Source: an uncultured delta proteobacterium (GTDB lineage Bacteria > Desulfobacterota > Desulfobacteria > Desulfobacterales > B30-G6). From it: DNA of 64,000 nucleotides. The stretch is taken from positions 178,833 to 242,832 of the forward strand of contig CAWJIL010000017.1 of assembly GCA_963842925.1 (NCBI GenBank). Reading direction: 5' to 3'. Under the pieces are notes generated by a model. It searched no databases. It was not told where the DNA came from and worked only from the letters and a program-made list of their open reading frames with translations. Shown in pieces: positions 1,836-53,510 of the stretch (position 1 is its first letter; the number at the start of each line of letters is the position of its first letter). The translations under genes were made by a program, and so were the position numbers.

Positions 1836-2438
1836 ATGGACAAGATTATACCTAGATATGAATTTCGTACTTTTGCTCAGAATTTTGGACTGGTAGAAAC
1901 CAAAATGAGAAAACAGTCCCTATGTTCAATGATCCGTGAAAGCCAGGAGATATACATTGTTTCCGCCGCTAACAACGAAAACAATACTAAGATTCGCGAC
2001 ATTAAAATGGATATCAAGGAACTGGTGGAAAAAAAACAGGGTCTGGAACGATGGAATCCACACATGAAGGGTGAGTTTCCCATGCAAACCGAAGTCATTA
2101 AGACTAAAGTTTTCCCGGCATTTGCGGTCAAAAAACCTGCGTTTAAAAGAGACGCCTATACACTGGATCAATATCTGGAAGAACTTATTCTTCCACATCC
2201 CGAGTTGTCTGCCGTGAATGTCTTCAAACGGCGGTTCGCCTTTACAATCAATGGTTGTATCACTGAAATCGCCCAGTTATTAATCAATGGGGCCGCCATA
2301 CAGACCGTCGCAGTGGAGTTGGAAGATATTGATGCCATTCAAAAAGCCAAGGAACTGCTCGGCCTGACCGAATACGAAAATATCAATTACCTGCTGGCCA
2401 TCAAGCGGGTAATCGGTATGGAACCGCTATCCGTGTAG
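1836..2438 (+). CDS. Hypothetical protein, possibly CYTH-like
   Basis: 200-aa ORF with GGAG before the ATG. Alternating beta-strand-like pattern (YEFRTF, EIYIVS, TKIRD, MDIKEL, AFTINGCITE, TVAVELE). Sits next to a clear CYTH gene. Family assignment is weak. Confidence 0.55.
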   Translation: MDKIIPRYEFRTFAQNFGLVETKMRKQSLCSMIRESQEIYIVSAANNENNTKIRDIKMDIKELVEKKQGLERWNPHMKGEFPMQTEVIKTKVFPAFAVKKPAFKRDAYTLDQYLEELILPHPELSAVNVFKRRFAFTINGCITEIAQLLINGAAIQTVAVELEDIDAIQKAKELLGLTEYENINYLLAIKRVIGMEPLSV

Positions 2439-2599
2439 AGCATTCAGCTTCGCACACTACCGCCAAGACAGGACCAAGCCCGGTTCAGTCAAGTGGCCAC
2501 GGGGTTGGCCCGAACATGTCATGTATCTTGACGAAATGTTATTATTTACATTTTTATATAATTTAAGCAGTCAGCAATGCAATGATAGGAGAGCATAGA

Positions 2600-3064
2600 A
2601 TGGGAATTGAAATTGAAAGAAAATTTCTTCTAAAAAATGATGCGTGGCGATCTTTAGCCGGGGGGACCAAATACAGACAAGGGTATTTGAACAGCACCAA
2701 AGAACGTACCGTACGGGTTCGCACCATTGACGACAGCGGCTTTTTAACCATTAAAGGTCCCAACAAAGGGGCCACCCGGGTCGAATATGAATATGACATT
2801 CCTAAAAATGATGCGAAGACCCTGTTGGATGATCTTTGCGAGAAACCTATCATCGAAAAGAATCGGTATAAAATTGATTTTGCCGGACGTGTATGGGAAG
2901 TTGATGAGTTTTTCGGTGAAAACACGGGATTGATTGTGGCCGAAGTAGAACTGGAAAGTGAAGACCAGCATTTTGAAAAGCCAGACTGGGTTGGTGATGA
3001 GGTGACGGGTGATCCCAAATATTATAACGCCAATCTTGTGATTCATCCATACATTAAATGGTGA
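2600..3064 (+). CDS. CYTH domain protein (CyaB/thiamine-triphosphatase-like)
   Basis: MGIEIERKFLL.. carries the ExExK signature at the N terminus. AGGAGAG lies upstream of the ATG at 2600 (track ORF starts at 2582). Confidence 0.8.
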   Translation: MGIEIERKFLLKNDAWRSLAGGTKYRQGYLNSTKERTVRVRTIDDSGFLTIKGPNKGATRVEYEYDIPKNDAKTLLDDLCEKPIIEKNRYKIDFAGRVWEVDEFFGENTGLIVAEVELESEDQHFEKPDWVGDEVTGDPKYYNANLVIHPYIKW

Positions 3065-3094
3065 GGGTTTGGGCCCGGAAGGGGTGATGGTTCA

Positions 3095-4186
3095 ATGGAC
3101 TATATCGAGGTAAAAGGTCTGACTAAAATCTTCGGCAAGAATATTGTCGCTGTTGACAATGCGAATTTCAGTTTGAAAAACGGGGAGTTTATCAGCTTAC
3201 TGGGTCCGTCCGGCTGTGGGAAATCGACAATTCTGAATATGATATCGGGTCTGATCGAACCCACTGAGGCGGAAATATTTGTGGATGAAAAATGTTTTTA
3301 TTCACATATCAAGCAGATAAACGTACCCGCCGAGAAGCGGAAAATGGGGATGGTCTTTCAAGATTTTGCCCTCTGGCCCCATCTGAATGTCTTTGAAAAT
3401 GTGGCTTTTGGTCTGCGCTTGCGGAAAGTGCCCTCGAAAGAGATCCAAAAAAAAGTGCTGGAATCTCTGGAAATGGTACAGTTGCCCGGTTTTGAAAAAA
3501 GGCTTCCCAGGGAATTGTCCGGGGGGCAGCAACAACGGGTTGCATTTGCGAGAGCCATTGTCATTTCTCCCAAGGTGTTACTGTTGGATGAGCCGCTCAG
3601 CGCTCTGGATGCAAAATTACGTGAGGAGATGAGAGAGGAGATAACAAATCTGGTGCGTGAACTCAACATCACCACTATCTATGTGACTCACGATCAGGTT
3701 GAGGCCCTTACCATGTCCGATCGAATGTTCGTCATGAATCAGGGGGAAATATTACGGGAAGGGACACCTTTGGCTATCTATGAAGATCCTCGGGTTTCTT
3801 TTGTGGCGGCCTTTATTGGAAAATCCAACTTCATAAATGGGACTTATCAAAAAAATGCTGAAGGCGTGTCGATAAAAGTGAATGAAAACCTGATCATCAA
3901 AAGCATTACCCCCAAGGGCGACATTGAAGACGGACAAACGGTTTCGGCAGTCTTGAGACCGGAAAAAATCAAGATTGCCGAATCGGTTGAAAATGTGAAT
4001 CGCACCGGGATGAATATCCTGGAAGGCAAATTGCTGCGCTCCGTCTTTCTGGGGGATATCTTTGAAACCCAATTTCAGATTGATGACGATGTTGTGTTCA
4101 AGGTTCCGCTTGAAAAAGAATACCCGGCAGACAAGACTTTTTATCTGATATTCAATAAGGCAGAGGTAAAGATTCTGATAAAATAA
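3095..4186 (+). CDS. ABC transporter ATP-binding protein (Fe3+/polyamine importer type)
   Basis: Walker A GPSGCGKST, signature LSGGQQQRVA, Walker B LLLDEPLSALD, plus a C-terminal TOBE-like extension. Confidence 0.9.
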   Translation: MDYIEVKGLTKIFGKNIVAVDNANFSLKNGEFISLLGPSGCGKSTILNMISGLIEPTEAEIFVDEKCFYSHIKQINVPAEKRKMGMVFQDFALWPHLNVFENVAFGLRLRKVPSKEIQKKVLESLEMVQLPGFEKRLPRELSGGQQQRVAFARAIVISPKVLLLDEPLSALDAKLREEMREEITNLVRELNITTIYVTHDQVEALTMSDRMFVMNQGEILREGTPLAIYEDPRVSFVAAFIGKSNFINGTYQKNAEGVSIKVNENLIIKSITPKGDIEDGQTVSAVLRPEKIKIAESVENVNRTGMNILEGKLLRSVFLGDIFETQFQIDDDVVFKVPLEKEYPADKTFYLIFNKAEVKILIK

Positions 4187-4287
4187 GCTCGGGTAAATAT
4201 CCAGGGCGGCTTGCCGGAGCTGACACGTCGAATGGCAGTCAGTGACTTTACCGTCCATAACCCTTTATCTATGAAAAGGAGACAAAC

Positions 4288-5271
4288 ATGAAAAAGAGAA
4301 TATTTCCGATCATATTTCTGGTCTCGTTGTTTTATGTGTTTGCAATTGGTTCCGTGTTAGCTGCCGATCTTGTGGTTTATTCTGCCGGCCCTAAAAGTCT
4401 TTCCACGGAGGTTGTGGCAAAGTTTCAGGAAAAGACGGGTTTAAAGGTGCAGCTGTATCCTGCCTCAACCGGCAAGGTGCTCGCCAAACTGGAGGCGGAA
4501 AAATATAATCCAGTAGCGGATGTGGTGGTATTGGCCAGCTGGGCTGCCGGGCTGGGTCTGAAAAATCAGAATGTCCTTGCACCGATTAAAACCGAACACA
4601 GCCAATTTCTACGCGATGAATGGGTTGATGATTACCTCATTGCAACGGGAGCTTCTGCCATGGGAATCGCTTACAACACCAAGCTGGTGACAGATCCTCC
4701 CAAAGACTGGTGGGACATGGCCTCGCCCGAATGGCAGAAACAGGTAAACATGCCATCTCCGACCAAGTCAGGGTCTTGCTCTGATTTTGTCACGGCTTTT
4801 ATCGGGCTATACGGGGATAAGGCCTGGGATTTTTTTGCAAAACTGCGTGATAACGGTGCCAATATTGCCGGCCCCAACAATCAGGCGCTTACCCCGGTCT
4901 TGACCGGAGCACGAAAGACGGTTTTTGCTGCCGTGGATTACATCATTTATAAGCAACTTCAAAAGGGAGAGAATATCAATATTGCTTACCCGGCGAGTGG
5001 TACCGTGGTTAATCCACGTCCCATAGTTGTTTTGAAGTCATCAACCCATAAGGAAAATGCCCAAAAGTTTGTGGACTATTACCTGTCAAAAGAAGGACAA
5101 GCCCTTGTTGTAAATACGATCCTCATTCCTGCAAGAACCGATCTGAAGGTCCTCCCTCTCAGGGTTGGTATGGATCAGATCAAGACCATCCCTGTAGATT
5201 GGGACTGGCTGGGAAAAAATCAGCAAGAGATAGTCGGCAGATTTTATAAAAAGATAGAGACCGGTATGTAG
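4288..5271 (+). CDS. ABC transporter periplasmic substrate-binding protein (family 1, Fe3+-type)
   Basis: Signal peptide MKKRIFPIIFLVSLFYVFAIGSVLA. Size and position between the ATPase and permease genes fit. Confidence 0.8.
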   Translation: MKKRIFPIIFLVSLFYVFAIGSVLAADLVVYSAGPKSLSTEVVAKFQEKTGLKVQLYPASTGKVLAKLEAEKYNPVADVVVLASWAAGLGLKNQNVLAPIKTEHSQFLRDEWVDDYLIATGASAMGIAYNTKLVTDPPKDWWDMASPEWQKQVNMPSPTKSGSCSDFVTAFIGLYGDKAWDFFAKLRDNGANIAGPNNQALTPVLTGARKTVFAAVDYIIYKQLQKGENINIAYPASGTVVNPRPIVVLKSSTHKENAQKFVDYYLSKEGQALVVNTILIPARTDLKVLPLRVGMDQIKTIPVDWDWLGKNQQEIVGRFYKKIETGM

Positions 5272-17029: not shown

Positions 17030-17526
17030 GTCGAGTAGCCCAGGGGAATTTCACCCCCAGGCCCTCTCAGAACGGTACGTGACGATCTCCCGTCATACCG
17101 CTCCTGCCAGCCATTCTCTTGAAACCTCACAGTCTCAAGTCTACGCAGAAAGAAATTCGGTTCCTCCCAGTTTCCTGGTTGACCTTCACTTACTACGAGC
17201 TGGCTCATCCCCTTCGCTCCGGTCCCATTACAGGACCTTCAACACTAATACGGGATGATCCGCCCCCGTGCTTCGCATCGGTACTCTAACGCTCATGGGT
17301 CCTCCACTTGCGTTTCTCCCTTAACATCGAAGCGACAGGTTCCCAAGTTCCACGCAAAAGCCTAACTCAGATTCATGCCACCTTTACGCCGGAGGCCACT
17401 TAGGCAATACACAGGCTCCCCCTAAGCTCATCCTGAACCCCATATAAAAGCTCAGTTTTGACCTCGTCCATTATCTTTCGACGCTTCATCGAATGGTTCG
17501 CTTACGCTCATCTCTCTGAGTCACAC
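17030..17526 (-). mobile_element. ORF-less group II intron-like element (type B, ~497 nt)
   Basis: Minus strand starts GUGUGAC (GUGYG consensus). Canonical domain V at 17070-17103: GAGCGGUAUGACGGGAGAUCGUCACGUACCGUUC, with AGC triad, GAGA loop and AC bulge. Domain VI has a bulged A and ends ..GGGCUACUCGAC at 17030. No ORF. Confidence 0.65.
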
Positions 17527-17553
17527 CTGCCACGATCCTATGCCGTGACTTTT

Positions 17554-19743
17554 GTCGAGTAGACCGGGGTCTTCCATGGCTATAGGTTGTAGTTTGTTTT
17601 CTCTGTTTGCCGCCTGGTTTCCCGGCGGTGCCACATCATCACAGCCTTACCTTCGGTTGTTCCCCGGTCCCTCCACAGAAACGGACAAGCGGATTTCCCA
17701 TACATCCGGCTCTTCGGTCACTCGTTCAGATAGCCTCTAAACTACGAAATGGATTCAGGTCTTTGCGAATACTCACCTTGGGCCACCCGACCCTCTTGAG
17801 TGCCTGTCGGTAGCCTGGCCATGTGTAAGAATTTCGTTGGCTCTTACGATTGAGCCACTTAAACAGTATTCCCTTCACATGATAGAGATAGGTTGCACAC
17901 CTATCCGAGTTATCCGTTATGGCGTAATAGCTCAGATGCCCCACCACGCGCACCTTGGCCTGGCGAAGCATCTCACCTTTCCTCAGAACAGCCCTACTTT
18001 TGCGCGCCCATTCCGTGAACTTACGTAGGCTTTGTGCAAGTTTCTTGCGACTGGTCCGTCGCTTCACCTTGAAGTGCCCATCCCGAGTTTTCCCACAATA
18101 GTGTGTAAACCCCAGGAAAGTGAACTCCTTCGGCTTTTGCCCTCGCCTTTGTGCATCCCTACGCGCAAAACGCCCAAATTCAATGCAGTGTGTCTTCTCT
18201 TCGGCTACTTCCAGGCTAAAAGCTTCAAGCCTGTCTTTTAACCGATTCTCGAAGTGCCTTGCATCTGCTTTGTACCGGAAGCAGGCCAGGAAATCATCGG
18301 CAAAACGGAAATAATAAGCCTCTCCCCGGCACTGCCTCCTGACCCTATGGCTGAACCACAGATCCAGCACATAGTGCAGGTAAATGTTCGACAGCAGTGG
18401 TGACAGGATTGAGCCCTGGGGAGTACCCCTTTCAATGGCTCTAACCAGCCCGTCCTCCATTATTCCGCCCTTTAGCATACGACTGATCAACCTTAGTATG
18501 CGAGGGTCACCAATGCGGTGTTCCAGAAACTTCATCATCCATCTGTGAGAAACTTCATCGAAAAATGCTCTGATGTCTGACTCCACCAGATAGCTAACTC
18601 GCTTCTGCTGGATGGTTCGTCCCAGCCTGCCCAAACACAAATGCTGGCTCCGCTCGGGTCGATACCCATAGCTGCTGTCTTCGAAGATCTCCTCGTAGAC
18701 CCGTTCCAGAGTCTGCTTCACCGCCAGTTCAACTATCTTATCTTCAAAACAGCTGATTCCTAACGGCCGCCCCTTTTCACTGCCCGACTTCGGTATATAG
18801 CTCCGGCGGCTGGGCTGTGGGCGGTATCCCATACGCTTCAGCCGGTCAGTCAAGCTTTCAAGGTTCTCTTCGAGGTTTTCCCCATACTGTTCTTTGGTTA
18901 CGCCATCCACACCGACGGCTTTGTCGTCGTCCAGTGCTTCGTAGCAGTCCCGCAGGTTGTCCAAATCTGTCACATGATGATACAGCGATGTGAACACCAG
19001 ATCCGGCTCCTTGCGAGCCCTCTCTCCTATCCGTGTCAGGTCAGTGCTCATCAATTCTCACTCTTTGCATAGTGTCGATGTTTCCCCTTTCACGGGCAAT
19101 TGACCGTGGAGACCTTCGCTCAGCGGGGATTAGCCGCTTCATCGCTAAACCATTGCGGTTATACTGGTCTCCATCCCTCGCATCGGCGTCTTTTGGTCGC
19201 CTCCTTTTACGTTGGTCGACCATACTCGGTTACTATCCCAACGACCTGGGATGCTTTCACCAAGAACCTTTGGGTGCCTTTTCCGATGCTTGCCTGGTTA
19301 CTCCATCGTCGTTGTCATGCTCGATGCTGTCTGAGACCCCGGGGTGTCGGTTGGTACTCGTCCATAACGCACCTTCCGTTTCGCCTGCGCCCTTTAGGAA
19401 AAGATAGGCACGATCCCAAAATCAGTGTTTCTCGGGGCTATGGGTCAGATTCAGGGCTCACACCCTTCACCTCGCTAGACTCGCGGATTTCCTTATACAG
19501 CTGGGAAATACACTACCGGGCGGCTGACTAGACCTTACCCGGGAGGGCTTATGCTTTCGCATTCCCTCGCGACGCTGAACCAGCGCCAGGTTCGAACCCT
19601 AAACGCTCACAACCCTGGCTCTTTACCAACGCAGCTTTAGGTGGTTTGAAGCCTGCTCCTGCAAGCCGGCTCCGAGGGGCCAAACAACCCTCATCTTTTG
19701 TGCAGTTACGCACACTTTATAGTAAAGTGCGCTCGTGGCGCAC
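17554..19743 (-). mobile_element. Group II intron (type A) encoding an RT/maturase
   Basis: 5' end GUGCGCC at 19743. RT ORF in the domain IV position. Domain V-like segment at 17678-17712, 13 nt after the RT stop. 3' end ..GGUCUACUCGAC at 17554, the same terminal 9-mer as type B. Confidence 0.8.
17726..19054 (-). CDS. Group II intron reverse transcriptase/maturase (no endonuclease domain)
   Basis: RT motifs RPLGISCFEDKIV, GTPQGSILSPLLSNIYL and FRFADDFLACF (YADD variant). C-terminal X/maturase region. 442 aa. Confidence 0.9.
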   Translation of the reverse strand: MMSTDLTRIGERARKEPDLVFTSLYHHVTDLDNLRDCYEALDDDKAVGVDGVTKEQYGENLEENLESLTDRLKRMGYRPQPSRRSYIPKSGSEKGRPLGISCFEDKIVELAVKQTLERVYEEIFEDSSYGYRPERSQHLCLGRLGRTIQQKRVSYLVESDIRAFFDEVSHRWMMKFLEHRIGDPRILRLISRMLKGGIMEDGLVRAIERGTPQGSILSPLLSNIYLHYVLDLWFSHRVRRQCRGEAYYFRFADDFLACFRYKADARHFENRLKDRLEAFSLEVAEEKTHCIEFGRFARRDAQRRGQKPKEFTFLGFTHYCGKTRDGHFKVKRRTSRKKLAQSLRKFTEWARKSRAVLRKGEMLRQAKVRVVGHLSYYAITDNSDRCATYLYHVKGILFKWLNRKSQRNSYTWPGYRQALKRVGWPKVSIRKDLNPFRSLEAI

Positions 19744-19912
19744 TATATGGAGACAAGTCCAATTATCAAGTTTGATGAAATTATTGCCGATACCATATGG
19801 TTATGAGCAGCGTACCATGGAGGGACCTATGAATACAAGATTTGGTCGGTTGTGATTATGATCGCACACCGGTAAAATTTTAGGGGTCTGATATCTACCG
19901 TTTTGTTGGTGG
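19744..19912 (-). repeat. ~165-bp repeat, full copy R1 (gene-direction orientation on minus strand)
   Basis: Aligns end to end with the copies at 29581, 34262, 40641 and 49638. Its right end (..GGACTTGTCTCCATATA) abuts the intron 5' end at 19743. Confidence 0.85.
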
Positions 19913-21324: not shown

Positions 21325-22191
21325 CTATTTGGTACAATCATCAGGACAGTTCAACTCTGTTTCACCACCCCAAGGTTCGCAATAGGCGTCGCCGCAAACG
21401 GTTGGTTGATCGACACATATGACGAAAAATTCTACTTGTAACTGATGGACAGTGCTCTCGCAATTAAACCGAAATGCCCATGATCGGTCCAGAACACCAT
21501 CGTCCCTGCCCGGCCATGGGTATGATCCTACCTCTATGCATGGATCGTTGTCTTCCCAAGATACTGTTTTCCAACCACCGCTAATCGCCAGATCGGCACC
21601 GTAACACGATACAATCTCTTCATAATTGGCAACTCCGGGAGCAATAGCTCTCCATAAATACTTGAAGTAGTATGCGCCAACTGCGTCCTGGCCAGGTGGT
21701 CCTTCCGGCCCCTCTGGCCCCGGCTCACCCTGCGGGCCTTGTTCACCTTGAGGGCCCGTGTCACCGGTATCACCTTTTAGACCAGGCTCACCAGGATCCC
21801 CCTTGTCACCTTTAGGACCGGCGTCACCCTGTAGTCCTTGAAGACCTTGTGGCCCCGTGTCCCCGGTATTGCCCTTATCACCTTGTGGCCCTTGCTCGCC
21901 TTGCGGCCCCGGCTCACCCTGAGGTCCTTGGCCACCCTGAGGTCCTACTGGACCTACTGGGCCAACTGGTCCTTCCGGACCAGGTAATAGCTGAATATTA
22001 TTAATAGCATCCCATACAGCGGGCAAACCACCCTGCATATTTGCAATCGCCGCTGCGTTCTTATCTGCCTTTGATTTGGTGCTTGAAACATCTGTCTGTA
22101 GCTCCTGAATGTCAGTATCATCAACAGCCCATACATTGCCGCATAAAAGGATAGACAATACCACAGCAATTAAAATGAATCCTATCTTCAT
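21325..22191 (-). CDS. Secreted collagen-like triple-helix repeat protein with Cys-rich C-terminal domain
   Basis: ATG at 22191 preceded by GGAGGAGGAG. Signal peptide [22 protein letters not shown]. About 33 uninterrupted G-X-Y triplets ([16 protein letters not shown]...GPPGQ), then a ~125-aa domain with 8 Cys. Confidence 0.85.
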
Positions 22192-22869
22192 ACTCCTCCT
22201 CCTTTTCTGTTGAATGAATAACAAAATAGGTAAAGCATGCGTTGGGAGCTATCATAACTGCATGAAATATCAGCATCAGATCAGCAGGTGTCGGCCAGGT
22301 TCAGGTGGTACAGAATAGCTTTATCTTTAAATAGCACGCAAGAATCATGCGGAAATGTCGGATGCAAAAAAAAGTTATTATTATAGATAGTTAGACTTTA
22401 TAGTTGACTTGTAAGAAGGTAAAATGAGAAGTCAATGTTATAATTATTGGGTAGATAAGGTTAGAATCTCTGTGCTTTATCGCCAGAACCTTTGATGTAT
22501 GATTAGAGTTTTATCCATTGTCCGAGATTTGGCAATGATAATGTTAAAAAGATTTTGACTATTTTACAACGGGATTTTCAAGATAGGGTATGCAGGAAGG
22601 ATAATTGATAAAGCTCATATGTACGAAGCCGTGTAGCAACGGTATTGCACGATAGATCTATATGGGTATTGTATTTCAATCTGGTATGATGGAACCTGGA
22701 CAAATTGCCAGTTCGGGATATTTCAAAGGCATGATCTGTGCTGAGCCAGAACGCACATTGTGCCATATTAACCTCAAAGCCTTCTACTATGCCGCCATCT
22801 ATGGATTCTGTACTGAACCAGGGCGTACCTCTCCTATTGTTTTGTAGCTTCAGATATCGATTTGTCCGG

Positions 22870-40640: not shown

Positions 40641-40805
40641 CTCTCCAACAAAAACAAGGTTATCAGACCCCTGAAATATTACCGGTGTGTGATTATAATC
40701 ACAACTGACGAAAGCTTGTATTCATAGGCCTTCCGTGATATCTTGGCGATGACCAGATGGTATCGGTTAAATTTACATCAAACTTGATAACTGGACTTCT
40801 CTCAT
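40641..40805 (+). repeat. ~165-bp repeat, full copy R11
   Basis: CTCTCCAACAAAAACAAGGTTATCAGACCCCTGAAATATTACCGGTGTGTGATTATAATCACAAC..CCAGATGGTATCGGTTAAAT..CTTGATAACTGGACTTCTCTCA. Ends 49 nt before the ATG at 40855. Confidence 0.85.
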
Positions 40806-47874: not shown

Positions 47875-48010
47875 TACCAACGATTCGGTAGATATCAGAC
47901 CCCTGAAATTTTACCGGTGTGCGAAAATAATCACAACCGACCCTTTCTTGCATTGATACTGGTTCCCATGCTACCGTGGGCATTACCATATGGTATCGGT
48001 AATATTGCCT
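47875..48010 (+). repeat. ~165-bp repeat, near-full copy R12 (centre variant 2)
   Basis: ..CCAACGATTCGGTAGATATCAGACCCCTGAAATTTTACCGGTGTGCGAAAATAATCACAAC..CCATGCTACCGTGGGCATTACCATATGGTATCGGTAATATTGCC. Ends ~70 nt before the ATG at 48084. Confidence 0.8.
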
Positions 48011-49637: not shown

Positions 49638-49805
49638 ATATCCAACAAAAACAAGGTTATCAGACACCTAAAATTCTACCGGTGTGCGAAAATTATCGCA
49701 ACAGACGAAATCTTGTATTCATAATCCTTGCCGTGATACCTTGGTGATGACCAGATGGTATCGGTAATATTGCCGTTGAACTTGATAACTGGACTTATCT
49801 CCATA
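49638..49805 (+). repeat. ~165-bp repeat, full copy R13
   Basis: Roughly 85% identical by eye to R11 over the whole length. Its right end ..GGACTTATCTCCATA is followed, after CATCACCA, by the intron 5' end. Confidence 0.85.
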
Positions 49806-49813
49806 CATCACCA

Positions 49814-50045
49814 TTGCGACACGAAGTCGCGTATTTTGACTGTTCAGCGGAGGTATTTAGCCTTTGTCTGAACCCAGTGTCCCGTCGCTGCGATCCTATG
49901 GAAGCATGCGCCCAAGGTGCATCCTTGACGGGTATGAAGCCTTCCTGACAATGCGCCGAAGTTCACTTGTGTGAACGGTGTGGAAGCCGTGAGGTGGAAG
50001 CGCTCCTGGAAGCTCCATCCGGGTGAGGGGTTAGGATAGGATACT
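49814..50045 (+). mobile_element. 3'-truncated copy of the type C ORF-less group II intron (5' ~230 nt only)
   Basis: Near-identical by eye to the first ~190 nt of 27320..26823 (minus). It then diverges, and no domain V or VI is present. Confidence 0.7.
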
Positions 50046-50798: not shown

Positions 50799-50923
50799 TA
50801 AATTCAAATAAATTTAAAAATCCATTTTCAACATCTTGTGGTTCTGCCAATTATGGCGAATTGCTGATACTGTTGTAGATCAAAGGTTTTTTCAGGATTG
50901 AAATATCTGTACTATCTCCAACA

Positions 50924-51030
50924 AAACGTTAGAGATCAGACTCTTAAAATATTACTGGTGTGCGAATATAATCACAACAGGCAAAATCTTGCATTTATAA
51001 GCCTTACCGTGATAGCCTGGTGATAACCAG
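50924..51030 (+). repeat. ~165-bp repeat, partial copy R14 (right arm missing)
   Basis: ATCTCCAACAAAACGTTAGAGATCAGACTCTTAAAATATTACTGGTGTGCGAATATAATCACAAC..CCGTGATAGCCTGGTGATAACCAGA. Lies ~70 nt before the ATG at 51100. Confidence 0.75.
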
Positions 51031-53414: not shown

Positions 53415-53467
53415 TATTATATACGTTCCTGTTTGATAGTAATCATAAAAAAACTCTATCTCCTATT

Positions 53468-53510
53468 CCATGCTACCGTGGACATTACCATATGGTATCG
53501 GTAATATTGT
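53468..53510 (+). repeat. ~165-bp repeat, partial copy R15 (centre variant 2 + start of right arm)
   Basis: CCATGCTACCGTGGACATTACCATATGGTATCGGTAATATTG is almost identical to the same part of R12. Lies ~40 nt before the ATG at 53550. Confidence 0.7.

Follow-up and report, generated by a model that had tools for sequence, protein, structure and literature searches.

A very probable group II twintron: a reverse transcriptase-coding intron in domain I of an ORF-less host intron, placed in an intergenic repeat of a Desulfobacterales bacterium

The window analysed here is a 64,000-nucleotide (nt) stretch of contig CAWJIL010000017.1 (assembly GCA_963842925.1) from an uncultured delta proteobacterium of the Desulfobacterales. 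At 17030-19743, in the space that separates the genes for a metallophosphoesterase (20989-20000) and a GNAT acetyltransferase (16999-16493; both by Pfam), it carries group II intron sequence with a reverse transcriptase (RT)/maturase open reading frame (ORF), in a copy of an intergenic repeat. An earlier, sequence-only reading had proposed two introns in tandem, one RT-coding with an atypical domain V and one ORF-less with canonical domains V and VI. Its sequence facts were all recovered, position for position, on the minus strand, and there are indeed two group II introns of these two kinds. Their layout is different. The stretch is, with high confidence, a group II twintron in which the RT-coding intron is nested in domain I of the ORF-less one, and we are equally confident that the twintron sits in a copy of the intergenic repeat. 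Arrangements of this kind are rare but already known, and this is a new member.

The feature lies on the minus strand. Besides window positions we use q = 19743 - position + 1, so that q1 is 19743 and q2714 is 17030. L-numbers denote the contigs that were compared, and a slash between two sequences marks an insertion or splice point. The parts of the twintron, in the order in which they are read, are as follows (EBS1, exon-binding site 1; aa, amino acids).

19744..19909, minus strand: 5' exon, a copy of the ~170-nt intergenic repeat, whose 3' end carries the outer target …CUUGUCUCCAUAUA/UC
19598..19743, minus strand: 5' segment of the outer intron (q1-146), with the 5' splice site GUGCG and the first domain I hairpins, ending ...GUGAGCGUUUAGG
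17554..19597, minus strand: inner intron, 2044 nt, from 5' GUUCGAACC (GUUCG) to ...CUACUCGAC 3', between outer UUUAGG and AAAAG
19327..19551, minus strand: inner domain I core, matched by Rfam group-II-D1D4-6 with 53.2 bits (gathering score 49)
19393..19398, minus strand: inner EBS1, CCUAAA, which pairs with UUUAGG (19603-19598) before the inner 5' splice site
17726..19051, minus strand: inner RT/maturase ORF, 441 aa from ATG (442 aa from TTG at 19054), with no endonuclease domain
17678..17712, minus strand: inner domain V, GAGCCGGAUGUAUGGGAAAUCCGCUUGUCCGUUUC, in whose AGC triad stem a C.U mismatch replaces the C-G pair
17554..17674, minus strand: inner domain VI, a basal stem with a bulged A (the A of CUACUC), a 9-bp upper stem and a ~85-nt structured terminal extension
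17030..17553, minus strand: 3' segment of the outer intron (q2191-2714), comprising the remainder of domain I and domains II to VI, of which domain IV is short and ORF-less
17527..17553, minus strand: the former "spacer", AAAAGUCACGGCAUAGGAUCGUGGCAG, made up of the junction AAAA and the next outer domain I hairpin (6 bp)
17440..17446, minus strand: outer EBS1, UAUAUGG, complementary to CCAUAUA (19750-19744), the 7 nt that close the 5' exon
17030..17105, minus strand: outer domain V, with its canonical AGC triad, and domain VI, with a bulged A, up to the 3' end ...CUACUCGAC

The RT ORF is intact (Pfam RVT_1, 8e-32; NCBIfam TIGR04416, 326.5 bits against a cut-off of 300) and ends with a TGA at 17728-17726. 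Its homologs number in the thousands. The best 120 are 78-97% identical and nearly all have 441 aa, as the product does when read from the ATG at 19051, which is the likely start. The eight closest clusters (P0001-P0006, P0008 and P0037) are 95-97% identical and the next at most 86%; named sources are Thermodesulfobacteriota and Desulfobacterales. Three Rfam families were matched at their gathering thresholds within 17030-19743: D1D4-2, D1D4-6 and Intron_gpII.

The outer intron can be followed on both sides of the RT-coding one. By BLAST, q1-146 and q2191-2714 are both RmInt1-like, and q147-690 has no similarity to RmInt1-like domains I-III. The 5' segment is 80-82% identical to the 5' ends of RmInt1-like introns. 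The 3' segment is 66-73% identical, over its full length, to relatives from Methylomonas, Methylosinus and S. meliloti, and over domains I-III the outer ribozyme is 73-80% identical to the S. meliloti copies. A BLAST search of plasmids gave, on one from Methylomonas, a homolog of q39-146 followed, after a gap of 14 nt, by a homolog of q2207-2714. The S. meliloti copies have homologs of q31-142 and q2207-2585, 18 nt apart, and a Methylosinus plasmid has a homolog of q2213-2712. When q147-2190 was deleted in silico, the window became collinear over the junction ...GCGUUUAGG/AAAAGUCACGG with all three uninterrupted relatives, of which those on the Methylomonas and Methylosinus plasmids are themselves ORF-less. 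Set against these three, the outer sequence breaks off and resumes with nucleotide precision.

The inner intron is inserted after the long hairpin that ends ...GCGUUUAGG and before the next outer domain I hairpin. In uninterrupted relatives the homolog of this next hairpin stands directly after ...GCGUUNNGG and forms the 3' end of the Rfam group-II-D1D4-2 motif. The motif is contiguous in two of these relatives (123.5 and 105 bits). In the window it is matched at 19692-19564 with 82.7 bits, and its 3' part falls, poorly aligned and at low posterior probability, on the beginning of the insert. The 27 nt at 17553-17527 do contain the 6-bp hairpin seen earlier, but they are no spacer: as homology in the relatives runs through the hairpin, they belong to the outer domain I.

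A consensus fold was calculated with RNAalifold from the joined outer sequence of the window, the L090 copy (also joined in silico) and two uninterrupted relatives. It comprises 193 pairs, of which 78 show compensatory changes, in the standard six domains with a closed domain I. In domain I, two long-range helices (columns 6-10/368-372 and 53-63/355-365) form between q1-146 and the 497-nt unit that had been taken for a complete intron, and the six-domain fold was obtained only after removal of 19597-17554. The 497-nt unit is the 3' four-fifths of an ORF-less intron of ~670 nt in total (19743-19598 plus 17553-17030). The opening ~146 nt of domain I that it lacks, 5' splice site included, are found at 19743-19598, so that the two introns are nested and not in tandem. 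Nor is 17030-17526 a free-standing intron: all three uninterrupted relatives have the 146-nt segment immediately before its homolog. The GUGUGAC proposed as its 5' end is present at 17526-17520 but is not conserved; relatives have GUAAG, GCACG, GUAGG or GUGAG. The first of the two introns as originally drawn, 19743-17554, is a chimera of the outer 5' segment and the true inner intron.

The outer termini follow the GUGYG and AY rules, with GUGCG at 19743 and ...CGAC at 17030. Domains V and VI (17105-17030) match Rfam Intron_gpII (RF00029) with 57.1 bits against a gathering score of 40, in agreement with the textbook domain V (17103-17070) and domain VI described earlier, and their pairs are retained in relatives with compensatory changes. 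The outer EBS1 pairs with the 5' exon at seven of seven positions in the window. The corresponding EBS1 and exon sequences are UAUGUAG and CUACGUA in L090, UAGCAGAA and UUCUGCUA in L097, and UAGUGGC and GCUACUA in Methylomonas; an outer EBS2 (AGAUAA with UUGUCU) is tentative. Domain IV is ~70 nt long and has no ORF at the place where RmInt1-like introns have theirs. The outer intron encodes no RT and is an ORF-less derivative, which keeps the RmInt1-like stem and the GGAGGAACC motif at the 5' edge of domain IV. Its S. meliloti matches are RmInt1-like and hence, as we assume, class D (IIB3). By ribozyme similarity the outer intron would be of class D type, the class itself being defined by the phylogeny of the intron-encoded protein (IEP), of which the outer intron has none; for this label we used the class D definition quoted in PMC3552965.

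The inner ends are set by independent copies. Many Desulfobacterales-type contigs carry the inner intron alone, between unrelated flanks. Their 5' ends fall at q146-147 and their 3' ends, in the copies that keep them, at q2190-2192. Both ends coincide with those of the window in L006, L009, L010, L020, L021 and L026, and the 5' end only in L007, L014, L015, L034, L054 and L059. All close relatives start with GUUYGAACC and end with CUACUCGAC, and the stand-alone copy L006 matches D1D4-6 with 55.8 bits. In 17 copies the inner EBS1 loop is complementary to the 5' flank, with many compensatory changes. The pairs are GAUAAC with GUUAUC, CGAUGU with ACAUCG, CAAAAU with AUUUUG, GAGCUU with AAGCUC and UAUACG with CGUAUA and, inside twintrons, CCUAAA with UUUAGG, CCUUAA with UUGAGG and CCCAAA with UUUGGG. 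This complementarity fixes the inner 5' splice site between 19598 and 19597 and shows that exon recognition has been maintained. Because independent copies, EBS1 and the outer alignment agree, the inner boundaries are fixed. Removal of the inner intron, which is itself complete, thus regains the outer intron exactly, as is the case in a twintron.

Some stand-alone relatives of the inner intron (L009, L010, L016 and L033) lie within short tandem arrays of GAACATCG-like units, with the target repeated on either side of the insertion. More distant relatives with RTs 70-75% identical (L018, L024, L031, L049, L064 and others) have the apparent starts GGGUAACCUGGC or GGGCAACCUGGC and the apparent ends CUACUCGAA. 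To go by these ends, the whole inner clade may be without a canonical GUGYG 5' end.

The sequence-only reading had noted a C.U mismatch in the domain V-like segment 17678-17712 and a domain VI stem enclosing ~85 nt, and both were seen again here. In the window the inner domain V has the C.U form GUCCGUUUC, and the family consensus is the canonical GUCCGGUUC. The triad pair is C-G in 14 of 16 aligned members of the inner family and C.U in the other two, the window and L090. The G-to-U change occurs in four copies only, those of the window, L004, L090 and L097, and C-G is retained in the twintron copy L092. A permissive Intron_gpII search gave 18.8 bits (E 1.6) for 17554-17714; the mismatch and the length of the domain VI insert keep this score low. 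At its base domain VI pairs GAG with CUC, and its bulged A is 7 nt from the 3' end. Covariation is seen in its stem and in its extension (pair 48/153, for example, is CG, AU, UA or GC), and the conservation of the ~85-nt extension with covariation makes the long domain VI a family trait rather than damage. The coding intron had been suspected of decay, partly on account of the C.U. This variant, however, is common to copies in diverged hosts. It is a derived change common to four copies and does not speak for decay. As at least four diverged hosts carry it, it most likely spread after the mutation arose, and to judge from these sequences the C.U-bearing inner intron is probably still active. 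Gene conversion between twintrons is an alternative source of the shared C.U.

The same arrangement recurs elsewhere. A pattern spanning the 5' junction was run on metagenome contigs, and 12 matched. Eight of these are real twintrons (L088, L090-L093, L095, L097 and L098); the matches in L087, L089, L094 and L096 arose by chance in unrelated sequence. A scan of viral sequences for the uninterrupted junction gave only an ordinary RmInt1-like intron with an ORF (L100) and a chance match (L099). With the genome contig L004, the junction is thus found in nine other contigs, with differing 5' exons. The exons are alike without being the same (..UUGUCUCCAUAUA/, ..UUAUCUCAAUUUA/, ..UACAUCUACGUA/ and ..AAUCUUCUGCUA/). 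The L004 twintron (2314-4526; GCA_042573355.1, a metagenome-assembled genome of Thermodesulfobacteriota) is 96% identical to that of the window but is cut after q2219 and joined there to an epimerase/GDP-sugar gene, of which it has the 5' part; from the cut and the fusion, the outer intron there is dead. In L088 (Ga0102958_1048868) the inner RT ORF has been lost (q724-1981 deleted), which leaves an ORF-less intron inside an ORF-less intron, and the 5' exon no longer matches the outer EBS1.

Inner and outer introns have diverged to different degrees. Among the window, L004, L090 and L097, the inner non-coding parts are 96-99% identical and the inner ORF 95-96%, and the outer intron is 67-89% identical. 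Selection on the ORF alone does not account for the higher inner conservation, as the non-coding inner parts are equally conserved. The kinships also disagree: in the outer 3' segment L090 and L092 are closest to one another, but in the inner intron the window, L090 and L097 are. These comparisons point to an inner intron younger than its hosts, which would have homed repeatedly into a conserved domain I site. The same divergence pattern in Thermosynechococcus elongatus was read as recent independent insertions into dispersed outer introns (Mohr et al., PMC2882425).

Three other explanations of the locus were weighed against the twintron. In the tandem arrangement, a complete RT intron (19743-17554) would come first, then 27 nt of exon-like spacer, then an ORF-less intron that is complete in 497 nt and starts with GUGUGAC at 17526. 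The two domain V/VI sets, the GUGUG after the hairpin and the two CUACUCGAC ends count in its favour; the 9-mer CTACTCGAC is indeed present twice on the minus strand, at 17562-17554 and 17038-17030, as direct inspection confirmed (we estimate the chance expectation for a given 9-mer in 2.7 kb at ~0.01, from 2714/4^9). We nevertheless find the tandem barely credible. Homology with uninterrupted relatives resumes at q2191-2207 and runs through the supposed spacer, GUGUG is not conserved, and the 497-nt unit, which has no 5' part of domain I, forms helices with q1-146. Where the RT intron stands alone, moreover, it begins at q147 and not at q1, and its EBS1 pairs with q141-146 and not with the exon before 19743.

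The 497-nt unit could instead be a 5'-truncated ORF-less fragment, left for example by abortive retrohoming next to a complete intron at 19743-17554, with the RmInt1 likeness of q1-146 a coincidence. Truncated fragments of this sort are common, and the window itself has two (33823-33580 and 32591-32492). This explanation is very unlikely, given a break in the outer sequence that is nucleotide-exact against three uninterrupted relatives, RmInt1 likeness in q1-146 and q2191-2714 alike but not in q147-690, inner ends backed by independent copies and EBS1 covariation, and the same arrangement in nine other contigs. One intron whose 3' region has been duplicated or expanded, much like the alternative kept by the sequence-only reading, has precedents in bacterial introns with domain V/VI repeats (C.te.I1) or 3' extensions (B.c.I4; PMC4424553). 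Its probability is close to nil: the two domain V/VI sets are not duplicates, with no similarity between them by self-BLAST, and the 524-nt 3' segment contains most of domain I and domains II-IV of a different intron lineage. The CUACUCGAC end aside (a 20-nt match with E 0.5 at another copy), no similarity was detected between the two ribozymes, and the inner intron is of a different lineage from the outer. A circularly permuted intron (PMC8637638) was also considered and rejected, the domain order being normal in both introns.

Some observations weigh against the twintron as described. The inner 5' end, GUUCG, departs from the GUGYG consensus, and GUUYG is found in all close relatives. The inner domain V has the C.U and scores below the Rfam gathering score. 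The literature on classes E, F and g1-g4 offered no diagnostic by which the inner intron could be classed. No convincing EBS2 with its intron-binding site 2 (IBS2) was found for either intron; candidates occur in some copies, in no consistent register. Pfam scans of 11 larger ORFs of the window (the RT ORF and ten others from the window ORF list) found no second RT and hence no class D RT. Splicing and its order, finally, are deduced from DNA sequence.

On the twintron reading, the inner RT-coding intron would have retrohomed into the DNA of the outer domain I, recognising UUUAGG via its EBS1. In the RNA, it would be excised first, aided by its own RT/maturase. This excision would rejoin the two halves of the outer domain I, and the outer intron could then fold and splice, alone or with a maturase supplied elsewhere. 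That the inner intron goes first is suggested by its position within the outer domain I; general group II biology and twintron precedents (PMC4424553, PMC4649490) were also drawn on. The conserved motif GUGAGCGUUNRGG/AAAAG of the outer family would be a multi-copy and itself mobile homing site for the inner lineage, which would have invaded several already diverged outer copies.

As for the outer maturase, the RmInt1-like stem and GGAGGAACC kept at the 5' edge of domain IV hint at a class D maturase acting in trans. A different and rather doubtful idea is that the inner lineage is a specialised parasite of class-D-type ribozymes, whose RT serves as a surrogate IEP for the ORF-less host. In its favour, the outer copies have been retargeted although they have no ORF, their EBS1 sequences each fitting the exon at hand; the 11 ORFs scanned nearby included no class D RT; and L088 and L093 differ about equally in their inner and outer parts. 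The class-D-like domain IV edge kept by the outer intron counts against it, since this suggests a class D trans maturase. If true, the element would be a composite retroelement of two ribozymes, with its protein gene in domain I instead of domain IV, that can move as a unit.

The intergenic repeat that contains the twintron (CCAACAAAACGGTAGATATCAGACCCCTAAAAT ... CTTGATAACTGGACTTNTCTCCATANATC, ~170 nt) has no Rfam match. It is found at eleven places in the 64 kb, the twintron site and ten others, some of them partial.

First six copies: 19909-19744 (minus strand), 34435-34265 (minus strand), 40645-40803 (plus strand), 49642-49809 (plus strand), 47876-48004 (plus strand), 21145-21059 (minus strand)
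Other five copies: 50918-51029 (plus strand), 29743-29581 (minus strand), 25606-25511 (minus strand), 32491-32460 (minus strand), 53467-53506 (plus strand)

Two decayed fragments of a second outer-type intron lie on the minus strand. The one at 33823-33580 covers domains II to V with 78% identity and overlaps the 3' part of a DUF2188 ORF (34039-33710). The other, at 32591-32492, runs from the end of domain IV through domain VI with 87% identity and ends exactly where a copy of the ~170-nt repeat starts. Between them is ~1 kb of AT-rich DNA with a small glycine-rich ORF. Another group II intron is represented by two 92% identical copies of its 5' ~200 nt (UUGCGACACGAAGUCGCG...), at 49813-50030 (plus strand) and 27305-27118 (minus strand). 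They match Rfam D1D4-7 with 80.5 and 45.9 bits and are truncated, without domain V/VI or RT. Both follow ...TCTCCATACATCAC, a few bases downstream of a twintron-type target. An ORF with collagen triple-helix repeats (PF01391) at 21325-22224 (minus strand) lies in a local island of 55-62% G+C in a region of ~40% G+C.

The twintron leaves the current understanding of group II introns unchanged. It is a clean and recurrent case of an RT-coding intron that homes to a conserved ribozyme motif of another intron family, and the covariation at both exon-binding sites, together with the range of host divergence, makes it usable for the study of intron-in-intron homing. It also provides a natural domain V variant, with a triad-stem C.U that evidently kept spreading. 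For annotation it is a hazard: joining the RT ORF to the nearest GUGYG and a domain V/VI yields a chimeric "intron" and a phantom mini-intron.

Among known systems, RmInt1 and its S. meliloti relatives resemble the outer intron in their ribozyme, and differ in that the outer intron has no IEP and ~70 nt in place of the ORF. The psbC mat1 twintron of Euglena plastids has, as here, an ORF-less external intron and an internal intron that encodes the sole maturase-like protein. It differs in being organellar and in a degenerate group II/III intron without mobility. Nested introns are also known from Methanosarcina acetivorans, where they were reportedly described by Dai and Zimmerly in 2003 (summarised in PMC4424553). 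There too, homing is site-specific and repeated, the site is a perpetual homing site and no coding exons lie around it; in Methanosarcina, however, homing is into ORFs of related introns, with arrays up to five deep, whereas here the nesting is single and in a domain I motif.

Two further comparisons are with bacterial twintrons. In T. elongatus (TeI3 in TeI4; PMC2882425), as here, a lineage homes into a conserved site of a mobile intron, and the inner copies are nearly identical while the outer ones have diverged. There the two introns are related, and it is the inner one that has no ORF; it sits in domain IV, where the outer ORF starts. In the present twintron the RT belongs to the inner intron and the ORF-less partner is outside, insertion is into domain I, and the ribozymes are dissimilar. 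The Tery_4732 twintron of Trichodesmium erythraeum (PMC4649490), for which sequential splicing was shown in vivo, shares the location in domain I of the host, the distant relationship of the two introns and an atypical inner domain V. There, however, both introns have an IEP ORF and a conserved protein gene is interrupted at a single locus, while in the present case the outer intron is ORF-less, the site is an intergenic repeat, and several sites and hosts are affected. Twintrons are described as rare in bacteria, and so are bacterial introns without an ORF (PMC4424553, PMC4649490); our literature search found no description of this particular twintron family. It is noteworthy for the combination of an ORF-less outer intron, an RT-bearing inner intron of another lineage, the GUUYG 5' end and a tolerated C.U in domain V.

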